Source: a virus. Taken from it: 39,497 nucleotides of DNA. A model generated the notes under the pieces. That model did no database searches, was not told the DNA's origin, and saw only the letters and a list, made by a program, of their open reading frames with translations. The translations under genes were made by a program, and so were the position numbers. Location: the UHGV virus genome UHGV-0087833, one strand, 5' to 3'. Positions 2,496-34,228 of the stretch are shown here, one piece after another (the first letter of the stretch is position 1; every line of letters begins with the position of its first letter).

Positions 2496-5270
2496 TTACA
2501 CTCCTGATACTTCAATAGATAGTTGAATCTTATTTGGCATCTTGTTGCTTAAATATATGGTTGCAAAGTCAAACGAAATATTTAAGTTATTTTCATCACC
2601 ATCATTATCTGAAAGAACTCCGGTTTTCAATACAACATTTTGCTTATTAATTTCTTTTAAAGGAGAAAAATCAATTGCCTCACCACGATGAATAAGAACA
2701 CCAACTGCAATTACCCCATGAATATCAAGTATGTCGTGCATATCAAGGCGAACACATGGGACATATCCACCAACAAGGATACTTGTAGATTTGTTGGCTT
2801 CAAGTGTTATTAGATATTTTCCGTCTGGTTGAACTATTGTTCCTGCTATTCCATCTGGCGTGTTGAACATACCGCAGTATCTGTATCCTGCTCCAACAGG
2901 AACAATTCTGTTACCGCCAAGATCATGGAAATTTCGAACAATTATTGCACCAGGAACTGATGAATAAACCATTACTGCCTCTGTTTGCCCTGATACAGAG
3001 TCTGATGTTTCTGGGTTCGCCATGCATAAATTACCACCAAAATAAATATTTTGGATTAGAGGGGTGAGGCCATCATTAACCTCAAAACGTAAAAAGCCCT
3101 TGAGAACAGTCCTTGCGGTATTATTCTTAATAACAACAGGAAGTTCTTTATAGTAAGAGTTTCTGTCTGTCTGTGCCAGAGTTGTTTCAATAAAAACAAA
3201 AGGTCTGTGATTACGTTGAGTTGCATTCACAGGTTTGTACCTCAAGTTGTATGGCAAAGACATCTCAGTAAAACCATCAATATAATTACAGTTCTGAATC
3301 GTGAACCCACCACCACTATATCTTACAAAAAAAGGAGCCGGTCCGCTAAATCCCCTGGCGTTCATTCCATCATACACTTCATTTAATCCGCGTATTACAC
3401 CAGCATAATACAAATTGACTGAATTGCCGCCTGTAAAAGTTGTTTCGTATGATGGGCCGTGTCCACCGCAACATGAATTTCTTGTATCGCCATCAGGGAA
3501 AAATTTAACTCCATCATATGCAGTTCCACCACCCATCATCGTTGGATTTATAATGTTATTATACAGTGATACCATTTGAGTCCCGCTTACATCAAGCCCC
3601 CTCCTGCAAGCAAATGCTATCATATCCACGACTGTGCAATAGCTGCTATTGTATATTTCAACACCATAACCAGTGCCGTTTGTTAAATCATATGCACGGT
3701 TTGAGTATTCAATATATGGCTCTATTATTTTCGTTCTGTAGCATGACTCAAGAAAAATTCCAGTTTCTGAAAAGCCGATTAGTTTTATTCCTTCTATATG
3801 CATATCAACAGCGCCATCTATCACAAGACCACGGAACCCCAAATCACCAGGAGATGCGTTCTGCGTGACAGGTCTTTCAAAATTGAAATCACCGACAATT
3901 CTGCCGTAGCATGGTTTTCTTTTATATATATTTGCCTTTCTTGTGATTTTAAACACGTCTCCAACAGATGGTTTAAACGGGAATGGTCCCTGAGCATATT
4001 CAAATTTTGCTGTTTTAGTGTCGTAATCCCAATGAGTTATGTATCTTGATATTCCGGCGTTAGCTCCGGTGACACCTGTTACTTTTACCTGATTGTATTG
4101 TTTTGTTAATGTTGCATCATTACCAAATGAGAATTCACCTCCGGATACAGATGCTGTTACGGTCGTTGAGTAATCATTGCTCGCAGAGTAGAAAAAATAA
4201 AATGCACCTGATATCTCCGCTTTTTTTGTTGCATTATCAAAAGCAGTAACAACATGCATTTCACCTTCACAAGCCTGTCCTCTATTATCTGTCTGAATTA
4301 AGCGATTGCCATGAATCATAATTATATCGCCTGCATCAACAGAATATGCTGAGTTAATTGATATTGATGTGTCACCAGGATTTATTGTTGAATTATAGTC
4401 AATTGGCGTGGCATCTCCACCTTCGAGTCTTATGAAATAATCATCAATCCAGTTTGGGCCAAGAGGCTCTTTTGCGGTTGACTTTAAGACAACCTTGCCA
4501 TCAGCTACCCAGTCATAGTTATAATTATCCCCGCCGCATTTTATGCGGCTAATCAAATACACACCAGAATCCCACTTCAGGCGTTTTCCGTTAGATGCGC
4601 AGTAAATGATGGCATTTGTTATTGCGTCTGTATCGTCAGTAATGCCATCCCCTTTTGCACCAAAATCGCGAACATTGACGATATCCCGCATTTTATCCTG
4701 GAACGTTCGGTACACAGCCCCAGAACCATACTGAATAAACCAACCAAAACCACCAACAACCCCGGCGATTGCAGCATCGACATAATTACGCATTGAGCGA
4801 TTATTTACAGCGTCCTGCTCAAGTGATGGATCTGCAAGGTTAGAAATTTTGTTTTGCTTTGCATCGTAATATTTTGCAAGCAAAGATGGTTTCATCAATG
4901 CACGTCTGAACCACCCAAAACATCGCTGGATCAGCATCGTCAGGTAGTCAAATGCATCTTCATGAACTTCGGGGAAAAATTTTCCCTGATTGCGAAGATC
5001 AGTCTCCTGCACCACATCAAGCACACGCTCTATCGTAATTCGCCAGCCAGCAGCAAGCGGCGACGGGAGAACCACTTCACCGCCACTATAAGTGCCCGCT
5101 CCAGTTACCTTATAACCGGTATCCAGAACCAATTCTGTTACGTTCCCGTTCAGGTCAGACACCTGAACAACCAGGTCGGTTTTTTTGAAAATACGGAAGG
5201 TATACGGAAATGATGTCGTAACGCCGTTACCGGTGTATTCGTTGTGGTCAACTTCGGTTGAGACCGTCAT
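2496..5270 (-). CDS. Tailspike / tail fiber protein
   Basis: 924 aa; N-terminal tail-attachment-like domain (YTGNGVTTSFPYTF), long beta-rich body; sits between ejection proteins and lysis genes. Confidence 0.85.
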   Translation of the reverse strand: MTVSTEVDHNEYTGNGVTTSFPYTFRIFKKTDLVVQVSDLNGNVTELVLDTGYKVTGAGTYSGGEVVLPSPLAAGWRITIERVLDVVQETDLRNQGKFFPEVHEDAFDYLTMLIQRCFGWFRRALMKPSLLAKYYDAKQNKISNLADPSLEQDAVNNRSMRNYVDAAIAGVVGGFGWFIQYGSGAVYRTFQDKMRDIVNVRDFGAKGDGITDDTDAITNAIIYCASNGKRLKWDSGVYLISRIKCGGDNYNYDWVADGKVVLKSTAKEPLGPNWIDDYFIRLEGGDATPIDYNSTINPGDTSISINSAYSVDAGDIIMIHGNRLIQTDNRGQACEGEMHVVTAFDNATKKAEISGAFYFFYSASNDYSTTVTASVSGGEFSFGNDATLTKQYNQVKVTGVTGANAGISRYITHWDYDTKTAKFEYAQGPFPFKPSVGDVFKITRKANIYKRKPCYGRIVGDFNFERPVTQNASPGDLGFRGLVIDGAVDMHIEGIKLIGFSETGIFLESCYRTKIIEPYIEYSNRAYDLTNGTGYGVEIYNSSYCTVVDMIAFACRRGLDVSGTQMVSLYNNIINPTMMGGGTAYDGVKFFPDGDTRNSCCGGHGPSYETTFTGGNSVNLYYAGVIRGLNEVYDGMNARGFSGPAPFFVRYSGGGFTIQNCNYIDGFTEMSLPYNLRYKPVNATQRNHRPFVFIETTLAQTDRNSYYKELPVVIKNNTARTVLKGFLRFEVNDGLTPLIQNIYFGGNLCMANPETSDSVSGQTEAVMVYSSVPGAIIVRNFHDLGGNRIVPVGAGYRYCGMFNTPDGIAGTIVQPDGKYLITLEANKSTSILVGGYVPCVRLDMHDILDIHGVIAVGVLIHRGEAIDFSPLKEINKQNVVLKTGVLSDNDGDENNLNISFDFATIYLSNKMPNKIQLSIEVSGV

Positions 5271-5446: not shown

Positions 5447-5465
5447 ATTGCATGGAGAAGATAAG

Positions 5466-5723
5466 ATGCAGCAGTATCACTATCCACTGGAAGACGGATT
5501 TACCGAAAGGATTCACACGCCGGGAGGCGTCAGGTCACTGGTGGAGGGATCGCACTTGATGAAATTACTCCGGGATCTCGATAAGGATGGATTTAATGTC
5601 GATGGCCCACTTGCCGAACTGACTGCACTGATTAACTACGTCACCAGCTCACAGATGTCTATGCGGGATCTGCAAACACATCTCGACTATTGTGCCGAAC
5701 AATTACGAAAACAAACCAGATAA
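5466..5723 (+). CDS. Antirepressor C-terminal-domain paralog (stand-alone)
   Basis: 85 aa; clearly similar to the C-terminal 50 aa of the downstream Ant (LMKLLRDLDKDGFNVDG...DLQTHLDYC vs LMNLLNQLQEDGHDVSG...DIQTHAEYI); GGAGAA RBS. Confidence 0.65.
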   Translation: MQQYHYPLEDGFTERIHTPGGVRSLVEGSHLMKLLRDLDKDGFNVDGPLAELTALINYVTSSQMSMRDLQTHLDYCAEQLRKQTR

Positions 5724-5754
5724 GGTTTGCAATTACCAAGTAGAGTGTTTATTA

Positions 5755-5769
5755 TTACCTTTTCGGTAA
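5755..5769. promoter_or_regulatory. Operator palindrome TTACC-ttttc-GGTAA (site 2)
   Basis: Perfect inverted repeat just downstream of the Ant-C paralog stop. Confidence 0.6.
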
Positions 5770-5855: not shown

Positions 5856-5887
5856 CACATATGCCGCATAAGCGGTTTTTTTATGTG
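5856..5887 (+). terminator. Hairpin plus T7 run inside the ant leader (intrinsic terminator/attenuator candidate)
   Basis: CACATA...CCGC-ataa-GCGG-TTTTTTT-ATGTG; upstream hairpins at about 5803-5826 and 5827-5844. Confidence 0.45.
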
Positions 5888-6035
5888 TAAAGCGCACCTA
5901 TTCTATGGTGGGCTGTGTGGGGGCACCGAAAGGTGCGCCGGGTCCTTTGTAGCCGGTTACGCCAACCCTGCACAGTTCACCACCAACCGATTGGCGTCGG
6001 TAGTGGTGATTAACCTAACTACAAAGGTGATCACT

Positions 6036-6722
6036 ATGACTGCTAACGTAACCCCATCTGTTTTTCATTTTGAATCAGAAGCCACCATTCGAGCCATTGT
6101 TATTGATGGAAATCCTTGGTTTGTTGCCAAAGACGTTATTAAAGCTCTTCAACTGACAAACCCCACTATGTCAATAAAATCTCTTGATGATGATGAAAGG
6201 GCTAAATTTAACTTAGGCCGTCAAGGTGAAACCAATATTATCAACGAGTCAGGCCTCTACACACTGATCCTCCGCTGCCGCGACGCAGTGACACCAGGCA
6301 CTATCCCCTACCGCTTTCGTAAATGGGTTACAGGTGAGGTTCTTCCTCAGATCCGCCGCACCGGAAGTTACATTAAAAACTCGCTCCCGCAGGAAGAACG
6401 CATAAAGATAGTTGCCGACCAGGTAGCCAACGCCACAGCATCAGCAGTGATGCAGGCAATGAAGATAGAGAACAAAACCTACAGTGCCCCACTGAAGCCC
6501 GGCTACCGCAGCCTGATTCATTCTCCGTCTGGTGTTCTCGGCCTGACGGAGAACTCACTGCTGATGAATCTGCTGAACCAGTTACAGGAAGACGGGCACG
6601 ACGTATCGGGCGCGGCGGCGGAGCTGACCACCATGTTCTGCTACATTGTTGGTGTGAGCAAATGCCTGCGTGATATCCAGACCCACGCGGAGTACATCAA
6701 CGACAAGGCTGGGTTCTTCTGA
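6036..6722 (+). CDS. ant: Antirepressor Ant (Bro-N domain plus Ant C-terminal domain)
   Basis: Bro-N signature (GNPWFVAKDVIKAL...LDDDE...ESGLYTLIL...FRKWVTGEVLPQIRRTGSY); start at internal ATG 6036 with AAAGG RBS. Confidence 0.85.
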   Translation: MTANVTPSVFHFESEATIRAIVIDGNPWFVAKDVIKALQLTNPTMSIKSLDDDERAKFNLGRQGETNIINESGLYTLILRCRDAVTPGTIPYRFRKWVTGEVLPQIRRTGSYIKNSLPQEERIKIVADQVANATASAVMQAMKIENKTYSAPLKPGYRSLIHSPSGVLGLTENSLLMNLLNQLQEDGHDVSGAAAELTTMFCYIVGVSKCLRDIQTHAEYINDKAGFF

Positions 6723-6794
6723 CGGGCGGCGGCACAGGGATGTGCCTTTAAATAATTCTGTACAGATTGCAGACTGTGGGTGAATAGCGTACTA

Positions 6795-6809
6795 TTACCT
6801 TAAAGGTAA
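6795..6809. promoter_or_regulatory. Operator palindrome TTACC-ttaaa-GGTAA (site 3) overlapping a sigma70-like promoter
   Basis: TTGCAG (6768-6773), 16-bp spacer, TACTAT (6790-6795), then operator and AGGAGG RBS. Confidence 0.6.
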
Positions 6810-6821
6810 AGGAGGCGCGAT

Positions 6822-6989
6822 ATGACAGCGTTGAAAAATCGTACTCAGCACAATGAACAAGCCAAGCAATGCTGGGATGTCATTGGAAAAGTTATGCTTG
6901 GCCGCGCAAGCAAAGAGCGCGACAAGGATATGGTTTACCAGACAGGAACATCTTTCAGCGACTTCAAGGCGGCATTTCGCTCCAAATAG
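6822..6989 (+). CDS. Small hypothetical protein (55 aa), first gene of accessory cassette
   Basis: ATG 6822 eight nt after AGGAGG; in-frame TAG at 6987; below the ORF-track size cut-off. Confidence 0.5.
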   Translation: MTALKNRTQHNEQAKQCWDVIGKVMLGRASKERDKDMVYQTGTSFSDFKAAFRSK

Positions 6990-7009
6990 AAGCACATCAG
7001 GAGTTTTCC

Positions 7010-7450
7010 TTGAAGTTTAACATTAGAATATCTAATAGTTTTCTACATGGGGAAAGCAACACCCCTTTCGCTGTAGACGGACCTTTCCTTACTGATGATG
7101 AAATAAAAATCATACAAAGTTTTTTAGAGGATGTTGCCAATGGAAGGGCGCTTGTTGGAAAAAACAAGCCCTCGTGGGTTGATGATAACCATGATAAAAT
7201 TCCCGGCTCAGACAATTATGAGCAAGAGAATTATTGGCATTATCATTGTGGGCCAACATGGTATCCAAACACATTTAAGAATTATACCATTAACTTAAAT
7301 TTCAACCCTGGCGGAAGGCATTCTAATGAATGCATTCATTATGCAAAAAATGATAATGAAATTGTCATTGTTGGATTTTCAAGAGAACACATACCTTTCC
7401 TTTCATCAGATGGAAACAACAATCCGCTTTTTAATGATGAAGAAGAATAG
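7010..7450 (+). CDS. Hypothetical protein in low-GC island (146 aa, TTG start proposed)
   Basis: Only in-frame start not overlapping upstream ORF is TTG 7010 with AGGAG 6 nt upstream; region visibly AT-rich relative to the rest of the phage; followed by terminator. Confidence 0.5.
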   Translation: MKFNIRISNSFLHGESNTPFAVDGPFLTDDEIKIIQSFLEDVANGRALVGKNKPSWVDDNHDKIPGSDNYEQENYWHYHCGPTWYPNTFKNYTINLNFNPGGRHSNECIHYAKNDNEIVIVGFSREHIPFLSSDGNNNPLFNDEEE

Positions 7451-7471
7451 CCCGCGCTGCGGGCTTTTTTG
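7451..7471 (+). terminator. Rho-independent terminator
   Basis: CCCGC-gct-GCGGG followed by CTTTTTTG immediately after stop. Confidence 0.75.
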
Positions 7472-7542: not shown

Positions 7543-7704
7543 ATGAAAAAAGCATTTGCTGCACTGTTCGTTTTGTTGTCTCTGGTAGCTTCAACTCAGG
7601 CCTTTGCCGGTCGTTGTCAGCACGACAGCGACACTGCTGCTGACGGCTCCCGCTGCGGTGGGCGTTCTGCGGATTCCCGCCCGGGTGGCGGTGGCATTCG
7701 TTAA
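7543..7704 (+). CDS. Small secreted peptide (53 aa precursor with signal peptide)
   Basis: MKKAFAALFVLLSLVASTQAFA-GR...: classic n/h/c signal peptide; mature part Gly-rich with 2 Cys. Confidence 0.45.
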   Translation: MKKAFAALFVLLSLVASTQAFAGRCQHDSDTAADGSRCGGRSADSRPGGGGIR

Positions 7705-7726
7705 AAACAAGGCCGCGAAAGCGGCC
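7703..7726 (-). terminator. Rho-independent terminator for the minus-strand lipoprotein transcript
   Basis: GGCCGC-gaaa-GCGGCC hairpin followed on the minus strand by TTGTTTTT. Confidence 0.55.
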
Positions 7727-7727
7727 T

Positions 7728-7742: not shown

Positions 7743-8156
7743 TTATAAAGATGACTGATATTTTACAACTCTGTTCATGGCATCTTTTTTCACCGAGCTG
7801 ATATCAGTTCTTATTTTGGCTTCGTCATTACTGCTTATCATGCTATTAATTTTTTGCACTGACATGCCGTTTCTTTCAGCCATTGCACATACAGCAGCAT
7901 CGTATGAAGAACTCGCTGCGATGGATATCACCTTGTTACACTCAAACACAGCACCTTCAGCAATATCAGATGCCGATGAGGCTGGCTTGGTATAAGTCTT
8001 GACGTAGTGATCAATACAACTATCCTTCGCCGTCTTGGCAAGAGAAAAATCCATTTTAACTTTGTCGCAATATGCCTTATCAACACCGTCATAAACATCA
8101 TAGGATGTCGAGCAAGCGGATATCAAAAATACCGATAACAGCAATAATTCCTTCAT
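7743..8156 (-). CDS. Lipoprotein (low-GC accessory gene)
   Basis: Signal peptide with lipobox LISAC; AAGGA RBS; AT-rich coding sequence. Confidence 0.7.
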   Translation of the reverse strand: MKELLLLSVFLISACSTSYDVYDGVDKAYCDKVKMDFSLAKTAKDSCIDHYVKTYTKPASSASDIAEGAVFECNKVISIAASSSYDAAVCAMAERNGMSVQKINSMISSNDEAKIRTDISSVKKDAMNRVVKYQSSL

Positions 8157-8165
8157 TGTTGTTCC

Positions 8166-10640
8166 TTATTGCGGAGTGACATCCTGAGGTCGCCACCAGT
8201 ATGTCTGGTTAAACTCTTTCTTCGAACGTTGCTCCATTTTACGCAAATAGCCTGGTGAAAAATACTCCTGCATCTGATTAAAGATCATGTGATCGAGAGC
8301 CGCCTTCAAGTACCAGAGATTCGCACCAGGCATCAAACCTTTCCCAAGCTTAACCAGATCACCACCAGTCTGCTCATTCTTCCCTTCCACAGCATTTAAC
8401 GGTATGCCCTGAGCAATCTTCACTACGTCATCAACCAGACCAGCTACCGGGCCAAGCATCGACGCTAGTGCGCCGCTCCCGTACCTGGTGTGGTCAGAGA
8501 AAAGAAAATCACCATACAACCCTGCCCCACCACCTTTTAAAAATGCATTTATCCAGAATTTAACCATGTTGTCACCGGTCATTTCTTTTGGATTTCTCCC
8601 ATTAATAAGATCAGTAATCTGCATGGAAAGAGCACCAAGCATGGTTGTGCTTGCTAAAAACGTTGCTATATATGCCGCACGCCCACCAGCAGACGGCATC
8701 CCCATAGCTCTATGCCAGTGACGCATAACTACCGAGATAGGGAACGATTTAAACAGGAAAACACTTCTCGTTAATTCACCTTTCCATGTTCCACGCTGAA
8801 GACCAGACCCTACGAACATCTGTTCACGTGCGCCCGGTGTAATAACAGCCATATCAACTTCTTCAGTTACGGCACCGAGCAGTTTACGCATTGCCTCAAA
8901 TTTCACGCGTTCAGGCTCACCAAGATGTTTAACTGCTGAATCAGGGATACGCATAATGCTTTCCGGTGTCAGCATCGTATTATTACCGTTCCCCCAGTCC
9001 TCCTGTTGCGCCAGCTTCCATACGCTCCAGTCTGTGTCAGTAATCCCTTTGCTTTTCAGGATACGAAAATCAGAGTCATCGAGGCTACGAAGGTCTGGTG
9101 TCCGTGACACTACTTCTCCCAGGCTTCCCATCATGGTTACGCCATAGGCGCGCTTGTGCGCATCTGACCATGCTGTAAGCCCACTGGCACGCATTACCGC
9201 CGTTGCCGCCCAACGAGACACAGACGGCCCCATATTATCCATCGCCCAGCGGTTAACGCTGCCAAGTAGAGATTCCATCGCCAGGCCAGCGCGGCGCGCC
9301 CGCGCAAGTTCTGTACGGTTCGTTGGGTCCATAGCTTCAAGCTGGTTGCGAAATAACTGGTTCATTGGAAGGTTGGTAACCTTCGCAGACAGATACATGG
9401 TTCCAAGATCAGAGAACGATGACAGCAACGCGGATCCGAGTCTGCTGGCAACCAGCCAGTTGCGGATATTGTCAGACCATCGCGCGATGTGCGGATTCGC
9501 TACAGGCTGTGTCTTTCCGGAAATAAAGTTGTACAGATTCTCTGTGTTGTTCGCCAGCCGCTCGACTTTACCGGTTTTACTCGGGTTAGCTGTTGCCGTT
9601 TCTGCCTTAACCTGATCAAGAAGGGAGCGGAAAACATGATCGGGGTTTGGACCATATGTTTCCACCAGAGCAATATCTTTACTGATACCTTCCAGGTGAC
9701 CGACCATGATTTCCCATAGAGAGCGATCGCCATAAAGTTGTTGATATTGGAGATAGGAATCTGCATCTTTGAAATGTATCTGTCGTGATGCATTACCACG
9801 GTTAGCACGTGCGCCGGAAATTCGCATTCCGGTATCAGTAAGCTTATTCAGCCCACCAGTAGCGATCGTGTTATAAGCCTCTCCAAGAAATGCAGACAAC
9901 TCGGCATCGTTCATCAGTTGTCCATCGGCTCGGGTATAATATTTGCGATCCAGCTTACCTATAACATCGCTAACCCATTTATCTTTTGATACCGCCCCAA
10001 CCTTTTCCATAGAATGATGTTGAGGGATCCCCCAGTTTTCGAGATAGCCAATGTCCCCACCAGCATCATTAAACCGGCGGCGCAGTAGATCTGTCACTTC
10101 TCTCCACGCCTTAGCACCTTTTCTTGCTTTAGCATTGCCAGTATTTTGCCCTCGCATTTCATATACCAGGTCACGCACGCCCGCTTCATCTTCAAACAGG
10201 CCAAAAAAGCGAGGATCAACTGCTTCAAATGCCTCCTGCAATTGACTCAATGCATAATCACGAGTGGCTTTTGTTCTGGATTCAACAGAGAGGAAATTCG
10301 ATTTACCGTCTGCATTAAAAGCAATAGTACGGTTAAGAGCGCCAAGTTTCCCATCAGCCCCTTGATAGCTATTGATAAATTTATCCAATCTCTGACGTGC
10401 GGCTATAGTGAGGGCCACACGACGTTTCTTTAATGCCGCTTCTCGCTGTAATTCTTCAGATGCCAATTGTGCTGCACGATACAACCGTTCTGATTCGGAA
10501 AGTTGTCGCCACGACATAGGGTCATCACGAGCAATGGAGCGCATATTTCGATAAATGCGGTCTTCAATGTTCTGTATTTCTCGCGCCGTTAACGTGCGCT
10601 GCGCCGCCTGCTGGACCGCTTGTATACATTCCTGTCTCAT
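8166..10640 (-). CDS. Internal virion / ejection protein (T7 gp16-like position)
   Basis: 824-aa ORF, last of the run of large proteins downstream of the tail tubular genes. Confidence 0.6.
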   Translation of the reverse strand: MRQECIQAVQQAAQRTLTAREIQNIEDRIYRNMRSIARDDPMSWRQLSESERLYRAAQLASEELQREAALKKRRVALTIAARQRLDKFINSYQGADGKLGALNRTIAFNADGKSNFLSVESRTKATRDYALSQLQEAFEAVDPRFFGLFEDEAGVRDLVYEMRGQNTGNAKARKGAKAWREVTDLLRRRFNDAGGDIGYLENWGIPQHHSMEKVGAVSKDKWVSDVIGKLDRKYYTRADGQLMNDAELSAFLGEAYNTIATGGLNKLTDTGMRISGARANRGNASRQIHFKDADSYLQYQQLYGDRSLWEIMVGHLEGISKDIALVETYGPNPDHVFRSLLDQVKAETATANPSKTGKVERLANNTENLYNFISGKTQPVANPHIARWSDNIRNWLVASRLGSALLSSFSDLGTMYLSAKVTNLPMNQLFRNQLEAMDPTNRTELARARRAGLAMESLLGSVNRWAMDNMGPSVSRWAATAVMRASGLTAWSDAHKRAYGVTMMGSLGEVVSRTPDLRSLDDSDFRILKSKGITDTDWSVWKLAQQEDWGNGNNTMLTPESIMRIPDSAVKHLGEPERVKFEAMRKLLGAVTEEVDMAVITPGAREQMFVGSGLQRGTWKGELTRSVFLFKSFPISVVMRHWHRAMGMPSAGGRAAYIATFLASTTMLGALSMQITDLINGRNPKEMTGDNMVKFWINAFLKGGGAGLYGDFLFSDHTRYGSGALASMLGPVAGLVDDVVKIAQGIPLNAVEGKNEQTGGDLVKLGKGLMPGANLWYLKAALDHMIFNQMQEYFSPGYLRKMEQRSKKEFNQTYWWRPQDVTPQ

Positions 10641-33391: not shown

Positions 33392-33406
33392 TCACCTATA
33401 AGGTAA
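33392..33406. promoter_or_regulatory. Operator TCACC-tataa-GGTAA (site 8, OR-like cluster)
   Basis: Near-perfect palindrome in the divergent intergenic region. Confidence 0.55.
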
Positions 33407-33422
33407 CAAAAATCAAGGATAG

Positions 33423-33437
33423 TTACCCATGAGGTGC
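33423..33437. promoter_or_regulatory. Operator TTACC-catga-GGTGC (site 9, OR-like cluster)
   Basis: Imperfect palindrome 17 bp from site 10. Confidence 0.5.
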
Positions 33438-33439
33438 AT

Positions 33440-33454
33440 TTACCTGTTGGGTAA
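33440..33454. promoter_or_regulatory. Operator TTACC-tgttg-GGTAA (site 10, OR-like cluster)
   Basis: Perfect palindrome about 55 bp upstream of the repressor start. Confidence 0.6.
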
Positions 33455-34151: not shown

Positions 34152-34166
34152 TTACCTAACGGGTAA
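34152..34166. promoter_or_regulatory. Operator TTACC-taacg-GGTAA (site 11, OL-like)
   Basis: Perfect palindrome upstream of TTGACA at 34186-34191. Confidence 0.6.
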
Positions 34167-34213
34167 TTTTTTTAACTCATATCTATTGACATCAAACCAA
34201 ATACGCATAATCA

Positions 34214-34228
34214 TTACCTCAACGGTAA
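34214..34228. promoter_or_regulatory. Operator TTACC-tcaac-GGTAA (site 12, OL-like) at the leftward-operon promoter
   Basis: Perfect palindrome downstream of TTGACA; extra GGTAA half-site at 34237. Confidence 0.6.

Follow-up and report, generated by a model that had tools for sequence, protein, structure and literature searches.

A probable mobile toxin–antitoxin-type module with a RelE-like toxin fold in a variable cargo slot of a Uetakevirus

Introduction

A pair of small genes wedged between the structural genes of a temperate phage raises the question of what it encodes, by which partner it is controlled, and whether it belongs to the phage or merely rides on it. Such a pair is found in the viral genome UHGV-0087833, a stretch of 39,497 nucleotides (nt) that is called the window here at its full length, where a gene for a protein of 55 amino acids (aa) is followed by a gene for a protein of 146 aa (Table 1). 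Over the 801 bases around the cassette, identity is 99.6% to Escherichia phage phiv142-3 and 97.4% to phage HEMP4, and the window is a temperate Uetakevirus (epsilon15/phiV10-like) phage of Escherichia coli. An initial annotation, made from the nucleotide letters without database searches, described the pair as an operator-controlled accessory cassette and raised, as a weak inference, a toxin–antitoxin or abortive-infection module. From the sequence comparisons and structure predictions presented here, the cassette is probably a mobile module of the type II toxin–antitoxin kind, whose toxin would represent a new RelE-fold family and which sits in a variable cargo slot of Uetakevirus.

A predicted RelE-type fold for the 146-aa protein

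The 146-aa protein falls into PHROG 5954, a family of unknown function, and has no sequence match in Pfam, NCBIfam, PADLOC (2.0) or PDB; PDB searches with either the sequence or its profile returned chance matches only. Its relatives number 34 in a word-indexed search and 119 in a full profile search of 1.84 billion representatives, and none of 92 family representatives matches any Pfam toxin family at E ≤0.01. Membership in a curated family (RelE, YoeB, HigB, YafQ, YafO, YhaV, MqsR, BrnT, gp49, ParE and others) was likewise not found. The AlphaFold2 (AF2) model, built on a 28-sequence alignment, reaches a predicted local distance difference test score (pLDDT) of 92 and a predicted template modelling score (pTM) of 0.87. 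In Foldseek comparisons, 18 of the 19 top matches come from families of the RelE/ParE superfamily, at a non-significant E of ~0.2, and the RNase members (RelE, YafQ, YoeB and HigB) outscore ParE; the viral structure library BFVD gave nothing significant. The 146-aa protein is thus predicted, with high confidence, to adopt the α/β fold of the RelE/ParE superfamily.

The pattern of conservation resembles that of an active site. Residues H77, H79 and H127 are invariant across the 92 representatives, which share 22-54% identity with the window protein, and G50, N52, K53, S55, Y78, Y111 and F130 are conserved in ≥90% of them. In the order of secondary structure, W-H-Y-H forms the first core strand and C-I-H-Y-A-K and E-I-V-I-V-G-F-S the last two, followed by H127; the AF2 model has H77 and H79 on strand 2 and H127 past strand 4. 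RelE-type toxins carry catalytic residues at the strand positions of these conserved residues, and we take His-x-His and H127 to occupy positions of the RelE K52/K54 and R81/Y87 type, an assignment made by secondary-structure order and not by superposition. The initial annotation had flagged a loosely RelE/ParE-like pattern near the C terminus, and this was well placed: ECIHYAK...IVIVGFSREH forms the last two strands and includes the invariant H127, and the best local alignment to E. coli RelE obtained by hhalign, although non-significant, spans the same stretch. The absence of an internal Met, also remarked upon there, is real yet carries no information. The 146-aa protein has an isoelectric point (pI) of 4.9 and a net charge of -11, within a family that ranges from pI 4.8 to 10.7 (median 6.9). 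In three loci from Canicola haemoglobinophilus and viral contigs (L017, L071 and L074), no start codon precedes the GKNK motif of the toxin homologue, whose frame opens only at about residue 47; these copies may be N-terminally truncated or decaying.

A conserved upstream partner

The two genes of the cassette are co-oriented and separated by 20 nt, with a promoter-like site upstream and a terminator downstream. The 55-aa gene with its strong AGGAGG ribosome-binding site and the clean terminator, a 7-bp hairpin with six G-C pairs and a T-run, are both present as initially described. The 146-aa gene does lie in an AT-rich segment, since its GC content of 0.356 compares with a window mean of 0.489 and falls in the lowest 0.28% of 441-nt windows; its TTG start is at 7010, one base before the position first assigned (7011). 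Many enterobacterial toxin homologues likewise start with TTG or GTG.

The 55-aa protein belongs to PHROG 8607, again of unknown function, and is basic (pI 9.8). No relatives were found in Pfam, NCBIfam, PADLOC or PDB, and sequence searches with it recovered close relatives only. Structure prediction, a check that the initial annotation had suggested for both proteins, gave the RelE-like fold described above for the larger one, and a non-globular arrangement of a long and a short helix for the smaller one (pLDDT 74, pTM 0.35).

The pairing itself is best seen in the relatives. Through the toxin homologue, 101 loci were fetched (19 genomes, 76 viral contigs and others), and in all of them an open reading frame (ORF) on the same strand ends close to the toxin start, at most 35 nt past it or 31 nt ahead of it. 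This upstream ORF carries the C-terminal module of the 55-aa protein in 91 of the 101 loci by iterated hidden Markov model (HMM) search, and in the other 10 by eye. Moreover, the identities of toxin and partner co-vary, with a Mantel r of 0.94 that was reached by none of 2000 permutations. The order of a small upstream and a larger downstream gene, on which the first suggestion of a toxin–antitoxin module was built, is kept in 101/101 loci and in three plasmids inspected, and the pair is conserved and travels together through unrelated contexts. Partners are 55-65, 92-121 or 159-211 aa long, and conservation is confined to their last ~40 residues, where a helix is followed by an invariant Arg (R28 in the 55-aa protein), a linker that varies, a short hydrophobic stretch or strand, and a helix of the SFxDFxxA type. 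The partners of 159-211 aa occur in Pasteurellaceae (loci L013, L019-L025, L075 and L083-L106) and Neisseriaceae (L027 and L028), where a hydrophobic N-terminal segment and a helical middle precede the conserved toxin-proximal module; Pfam searches with them found no domain.

Where the pair travels

The pair in the Uetakevirus slot is present in 77 of 5426 complete E. coli genomes, always on the chromosome. Elsewhere, lambdoid Klebsiella prophages carry it in their delayed-early nin region, a Serratia prophage at the equivalent anti-repressor locus, and a P2-like Haemophilus prophage within the late tail operon, where it separates the tape-measure gene from the baseplate genes. In Erwinia it stands as a two-gene chromosomal islet flanked by accA and an IF-2B-family gene; phage genes are absent from its surroundings, and its upstream region showed no informative promoter or palindrome. 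In addition, the toxin homologue occurs on 37 plasmids, those listed being 2.7-4.6 kb in size; in the three inspected (2.7-3.0 kb), a 62-aa ORF that shares the YK..ADEVLLSR motif lies 11-14 nt upstream, and there is little other annotated cargo. In all, the module reaches Enterobacterales, Pasteurellaceae, Neisseriaceae and Aeromonas as well as cryptic plasmids, a distribution that would be expected of an autonomous toxin–antitoxin module. A structural role, at which the Haemophilus tail operon might hint, was considered and rejected, as the pair also resides on the inspected plasmids of 2.7-3.0 kb and in the chromosomal islet.

An exchangeable cargo slot

Comparison with related phages delimits the cassette. 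On the left, the sequence of phage TL-2011b follows that of the window, save for a few single-base substitutions, across the promoter and operator, starting where the anti-repressor gene ends and stopping at ~6811-6812; within the operator the arms are kept and two bases in the centre differ. On the right, the match resumes at the stop codon and terminator (~7446) and extends through the 53-aa gene. Between these flanks it holds a 59-aa gene and a gene for a 181-aa YafO-family type II toxin (by RefSeq name; Pfam PF13957, above threshold at 26.3 bits). The corresponding slot of EC.W1-9 (L111, 1700-2501) encodes a 108-aa protein (PHROG 10654) and a 167-aa DUF2335 membrane protein (PHROG 3996, 'moron'); the two genes overlap by 29 nt and are unrelated to the pair in the window. 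The view of a discrete accessory cassette is thereby borne out, since different gene pairs stand between shared flanks. Because TL-2011b and EC.W1-9 carry other pairs in the slot, the promoter, operator and terminator are, on this comparison, phage backbone between which the coding content is swapped.

The right-hand boundary has a feature of its own. In the terminator (7449-7465), the stems are identical to those of TL-2011b (L011), and the loop is inverted, GCGCTGC in the window versus GCAGCGC in TL-2011b, which looks like a flipped hairpin top.

Proposed control by the immunity operator

The cassette promoter is weak, agreeing with the consensus at 7/12 positions; alone it does not rise above chance, and a consensus promoter scan did not list it. 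Both hexamers given in the initial annotation are there, separated by a spacer of 17 nt and not 16. The last T of the -10 hexamer is the first base of the palindrome TTACCTTAAAGGTAA, and this is informative, as the pattern TTACC-N5-GGTAA occurs 14 times in the window with at most one mismatch (10 copies perfect), at 1816, 5375, 5755, 6795, 24235, 27377, 27395, 31047, 31109, 33392, 33440, 34152, 34214 and 39296, where 0.62 copies are expected and none of 100 shuffles reaches 14. The sites are often extended to ATTACC...GGTAAT. A general repeat scan did not pick up short palindromes.

The distribution of the motif suggests its owner. Copies stand between the cro-like and repressor genes, just after the repressor gene and upstream of the anti-repressor gene (Table 1), and this placement around repressor and cro corresponds to the layout of a lambdoid immunity region. 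The promoters at 6767-6795, 5727-5755 and 34186-34214 share one register, in that the last base of each -10 is also the first of the operator, and this shared register supports the weak cassette promoter. The pattern TTACC-N5-GGTAA is thus read as the operator of the immunity repressor and probably also of Cro, with one copy over the cassette promoter and others in the repressor/cro intergenic region. The palindrome noted at the outset is therefore real, although it is not specific to the cassette. Autoregulation of the cassette through an operator of its own was rejected, as TL-2011b shares the promoter and operator with other content and the motif is found genome-wide. A second palindrome, TCTGTACAGA near the -35 hexamer (6757-6766), was also rejected as an operator; it occurs once in the window, at chance level.

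Phages phiV10, phiv142-3 and vB_EcoP_ZX5 encode one and the same repressor protein, and its overexpression in the ZX5 study shut down lytic transcription (PMC9782041). In the window it shows a weak, sub-threshold YdaS-like match (residues 21-61) and an HTH_3 match (106-147), and no S24 peptidase domain was found in it. Prophage induction thus probably proceeds via the anti-repressor and not by self-cleavage of the repressor, as judged from the encoded domains. The anti-repressor promoter itself carries an immunity operator, despite the presumed dependence of induction on the anti-repressor. Several further operators precede genes outside the immunity region, for example in the interval of the lambda-P-like replication gene and a DUF1064 gene and close to the tRNA region, so that other promoters within the phage may also be under repressor control.

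The published orf10 experiments

The 146-aa gene has been studied already under another name. In the GenBank record of phiv142-3 (MN187550), the gene is not annotated, and a 52-aa frame within it, out of frame, is called 'orf10'. In relatives whose toxin identity is ≤77%, stop codons interrupt the orf10 frame, whereas the 146-aa frame stays open, and orf10 was rejected as a real gene for that reason. The published orf10 is hence an out-of-frame misannotation, and the 146-aa gene is the real target of the knockout. The lambda-Red homology arms of Li et al. map to window positions 7080-7139 and 7299-7358, so that codons 44-97 of the 146-aa gene, and with them the GKNKPSW and WHYHCG motifs, are missing from the mutant, whose 55-aa gene is intact.

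This mapping gives the reported phenotypes a new owner. The host was a lysogen of phiv142-3 among avian pathogenic E. coli (APEC), a poultry pathogen; the orf10 mutant grew normally in lysogeny broth (LB) and more poorly in chicken serum, survived in 50% serum at ~60% of wild type, had kps capsule transcripts lowered ~2-fold, and reached 7-8% of wild-type loads in blood and heart (Li et al. 2020, PMC7724020). The construct for complementation carried 'orf10 and its putative promoter region' (PMC7724020). Normal growth in LB fits the loss of a toxin, not of an antidote. In addition, serum induced orf10 2^4.12-fold in the lysogen, orf41 2^4.56-fold, orf40 2^3.68-fold and the anti-repressor gene 2^1.31-fold (PMC7724020). 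The genes orf41 and orf40 are the first after the cro-like gene (PR operon) and, with orf10, the three strongest serum responders, a pattern that fits a common derepression of operator-controlled promoters.

Proposed mechanism and alternative explanations

If the cassette is a toxin–antitoxin-type module, it could work as follows. Transcription would start at a weak promoter whose -10 and +1 regions are covered by the immunity operator, as the architecture of the site implies, so that the cassette would be low in a quiet lysogen and switched on with the anti-repressor gene and the early operons. One bicistronic mRNA would run to the terminator, and its translation, to judge from the start regions, would favour the small protein, the 55-aa product being well translated (AGGAGG, ATG) and the 146-aa product poorly initiated (GGAG, TTG). 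The C-terminal module of the 55-aa protein would bind and neutralise the 146-aa protein, as their co-conservation suggests. When free, the latter may act as a RelE/BECR-fold endoribonuclease that uses His77, His79 and His127 together with N52, K53 and Y111, and would cut mRNA and slow translation. The pair might thereby stabilise its carrier (tiny plasmids, prophages), alter host stress physiology, or both. A more far-reaching proposal, which we put forward tentatively and would not yet bet on, is that the cassette represents a fourteenth, uncatalogued RelE/BECR toxin–antitoxin family whose transcription has been handed to the immunity repressor and whose toxin is released on partial or full derepression, making it a lysogenic-conversion factor through which host mRNA is remodelled under serum stress.

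Several observations speak against a toxin–antitoxin module. The partner has no DNA-binding domain by Pfam, NCBIfam, PDB or the AF2 model, and the classical autoregulation loop is therefore missing; a repressor-silenced promoter also fits poorly with the constant expression of an addiction module in a lysogen. At the level of sequence, hhalign comparisons with E. coli RelE and YafQ are not significant, nor is that with a YafO-like alignment (3% probability), and the structural matches in Foldseek stand at the E of only ~0.2 given above. The charges are the reverse of the RelE/RelB pattern, in which the toxin is basic and the antitoxin acidic, which argues against a simple RelE-like docking in the ribosomal A site. 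Furthermore, orf9, the 55-aa gene, is absent from the published list of serum-induced genes, unlike the 146-aa region.

An alternative to an addiction or defence module is an early phage function, in which an RNase with a regulatory or chaperone partner would break down RNA of the host or of a competitor once the phage infects or is induced, and the small protein would set when or where the RNase acts. The immunity operator on the promoter, which should keep it silent in a quiet lysogen, the delayed-early position of the lambdoid copies and the rise of the transcript together with early genes all suit this view. It is nevertheless doubtful, since the pair also occurs on the inspected plasmids of 2.7-3.0 kb and in a chromosomal islet without phage genes, and the Haemophilus copy lies in a late operon; moreover, an RNase that everywhere needs a tightly co-evolving adjacent partner is what defines a toxin–antitoxin system. 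The proposal of Li et al. for 'orf10', carried over to the 146-aa protein, would make it a non-toxic regulator, RelE-like in fold and devoid of nuclease activity, that raises K1 capsule expression and serum resistance. The knockout phenotypes in kps transcription, serum survival and organ loads speak for it, as does the acidity of the window member, but we hold it to be unlikely: the three invariant histidines and the conserved N/K pair in 92 divergent members point to catalysis, the module lives in taxa and cryptic plasmids where K1 capsule genes are irrelevant, and the modest phenotypes might follow indirectly from an mRNA interferase acting at a low level.

Two further alternatives concern the identity of the protein. 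A gyrase poison of the ParE type would still be part of a toxin–antitoxin module, but it is quite unlikely given that RelE, YafQ, YoeB and HigB score above ParE and that the His-x-His of strand 2 and the His that follows the last strand presumably lie, by secondary-structure order, at positions of the RelE catalytic type. That the annotated 52-aa frame is the real gene and the 146-aa frame spurious is scarcely conceivable, even though MN187550 annotates only orf10 there and the complementing construct was designed around it; every locus keeps the 146-aa frame open and conserved, its product is modelled at high pLDDT, and the orf10 frame is broken in relatives as described above. A mobile toxin–antitoxin-type module in a cargo slot thus remains the reading that we favour.

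Gene neighbourhood

The features discussed are collected in Table 1. The initial annotation placed the cassette between tailspike and ejection genes; it lies between the tailspike gene and a virion structural gene, both on the minus strand. The 91-aa protein encoded upstream resembles the C-terminal part of the adjoining Bro-N anti-repressor and has its own operator copy upstream (5375); to judge from this resemblance, its gene looks like a detached or duplicated anti-repressor C-terminal domain. Downstream, the 53-aa protein has a Gly/Arg/Cys-rich tail and is kept beside all three alternative cassettes (window, TL-2011b and EC.W1-9), and its gene is followed by a bidirectional hairpin of its own at ~7710-7727. 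The gene of the 137-aa lipoprotein is another low-GC accessory gene, possibly for a surface or superinfection-exclusion factor.

Table 1. Features of the cassette, its control elements and the genes around it, in window coordinates
Feature	Position	Strand	Remarks
Tailspike gene	2496-5270	minus	PHROG 14558
91-aa gene	5448-5723	plus	PHROG 450 and PHROG 15539 matches
Operator upstream of Bro-N anti-repressor gene	5755-5769		after TTGCAA-17-TATTAT (5727-5755)
Bro-N anti-repressor gene	5883-6722	plus	PHROG 450 and PHROG 15539 matches
Putative sigma-70 promoter	6767-6795	plus	TTGCAG (6767-6772), 17-nt spacer, TACTAT (6790-6795); read from sequence
Operator palindrome TTACCTTAAAGGTAA	6795-6809	unstranded	pattern TTACC-N5-GGTAA
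Shine-Dalgarno AGGAGG of 55-aa gene	6810-6815	plus	6 nt before ATG 6822
55-aa gene, putative antitoxin	6822-6989	plus	GC 0.47
Shine-Dalgarno GGAG (weaker) of 146-aa gene	7000-7003	plus	6 nt before TTG 7010
146-aa gene, putative RelE-fold toxin	7010-7450	plus	TTG start; GC 0.356
'orf10' of phiv142-3 (QGF19616.1), 52 aa	7140-7298	plus	out of frame in 146-aa gene; MN187550.1 6498-6656
Intrinsic terminator AGCCCGCGCTGCGGGCT + T-run	7449-7471	plus	7-bp stem, 6 G-C pairs
53-aa signal-peptide protein gene	7543-7704	plus	PHROG 14503 'membrane associated protein'
137-aa predicted lipoprotein gene	7743-8156	minus	LISAC lipobox; PHROG 8691, function unknown; GC 0.39
824-aa virion structural protein gene	8166-10640	minus	PHROG 684
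cro-like gene, 76 aa	33128-33355	minus	
OR-like cluster, three operators	33392-33454		33392, 33423 and 33440; between cro-like and HTH repressor genes
HTH repressor gene, 194 aa	33510-34094	plus	
OL-like operator pair	34152-34228		34152 and 34214; just after repressor gene; second after TTGACA-17-AATCAT

Significance

The analysis offers a structural and mechanistic identity for two PHROG families of unknown function (PHROG 5954 and 8607). It also reassigns the APEC virulence and serum-resistance determinant 'orf10' to a RelE-fold gene in another frame, which changes how the published experiments are read; should the tentative proposal of a derepression-gated fourteenth family be true, the 'orf10' virulence phenotype would be explained through a mis-assigned gene. 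In addition, the slot shows how toxin-type cassettes without relation to one another replace each other exactly, between a promoter under repressor control and a terminator that they share, and the pair provides a testable case of a toxin–antitoxin system with regulation outsourced to the prophage switch.

Comparison with known systems

The 146-aa protein is filed within the RelE/ParE-fold toxin–antitoxin kind and in no named family, because the profile comparisons with RelE, YafQ and YafO-like sequences are not significant. Gerdes (2025) counts 13 Pfam families of BECR-fold toxins in type II modules (PMC11980606), and the 146-aa protein matches none of these 13. The antitoxin-first gene order is that of RelBE, DinJ-YafQ and YefM-YoeB. 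Compared with RelBE-type systems, the toxin is longer (146 aa with large loop insertions, versus ~90 aa), has the His-x-His ... His set and, in this member, is acidic, and its partner carries no ribbon-helix-helix (RHH), Phd/YefM or helix-turn-helix (HTH) domain.

The closest parallel by position is the YafO pair of TL-2011b (gp45/gp44), which occupies the same slot with the same promoter-operator and terminator, has a small upstream partner of 59 aa without a known domain, and encodes an acidic toxin with a His-x-His motif that hhalign places opposite the window motif (at 3% probability). The two differ in that the window protein has no PF13957 match and the partners belong to PHROG 8607 (window) and 6685 (TL-2011b).

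A parallel in regulation is offered by PaaA2-ParE2 of an E. coli O157 prophage, in which a short, largely disordered or helical antitoxin lacks a DNA-binding domain and a separate repressor, PaaR2, acts as regulator. Both systems are prophage-borne and combine an antitoxin without a DNA-binding domain with separate control of transcription, whereas in the window the presumed regulator is the phage immunity repressor, acting through a genome-wide operator, and not a dedicated third gene, and the predicted toxin structure looks RNase-like, not ParE-like. The surroundings recall the immI region of P22-like phages, where an operator over the anti-repressor promoter and an adjoining tailspike gene are likewise followed by variable cargo. 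The difference is that the operator in the window is the same as at the OR-like and OL-like sites and not that of a separate Mnt/Arc system; no Arc or Mnt gene was found among the window ORFs in the 5.3-8.2 kb stretch, and TL-2011b has an Arc-like gene. The general idea of the cassette is familiar, and what appears to be new is the family itself, its antitoxin module whose control is left to another regulator, and the new interpretation of a virulence gene already in the literature.

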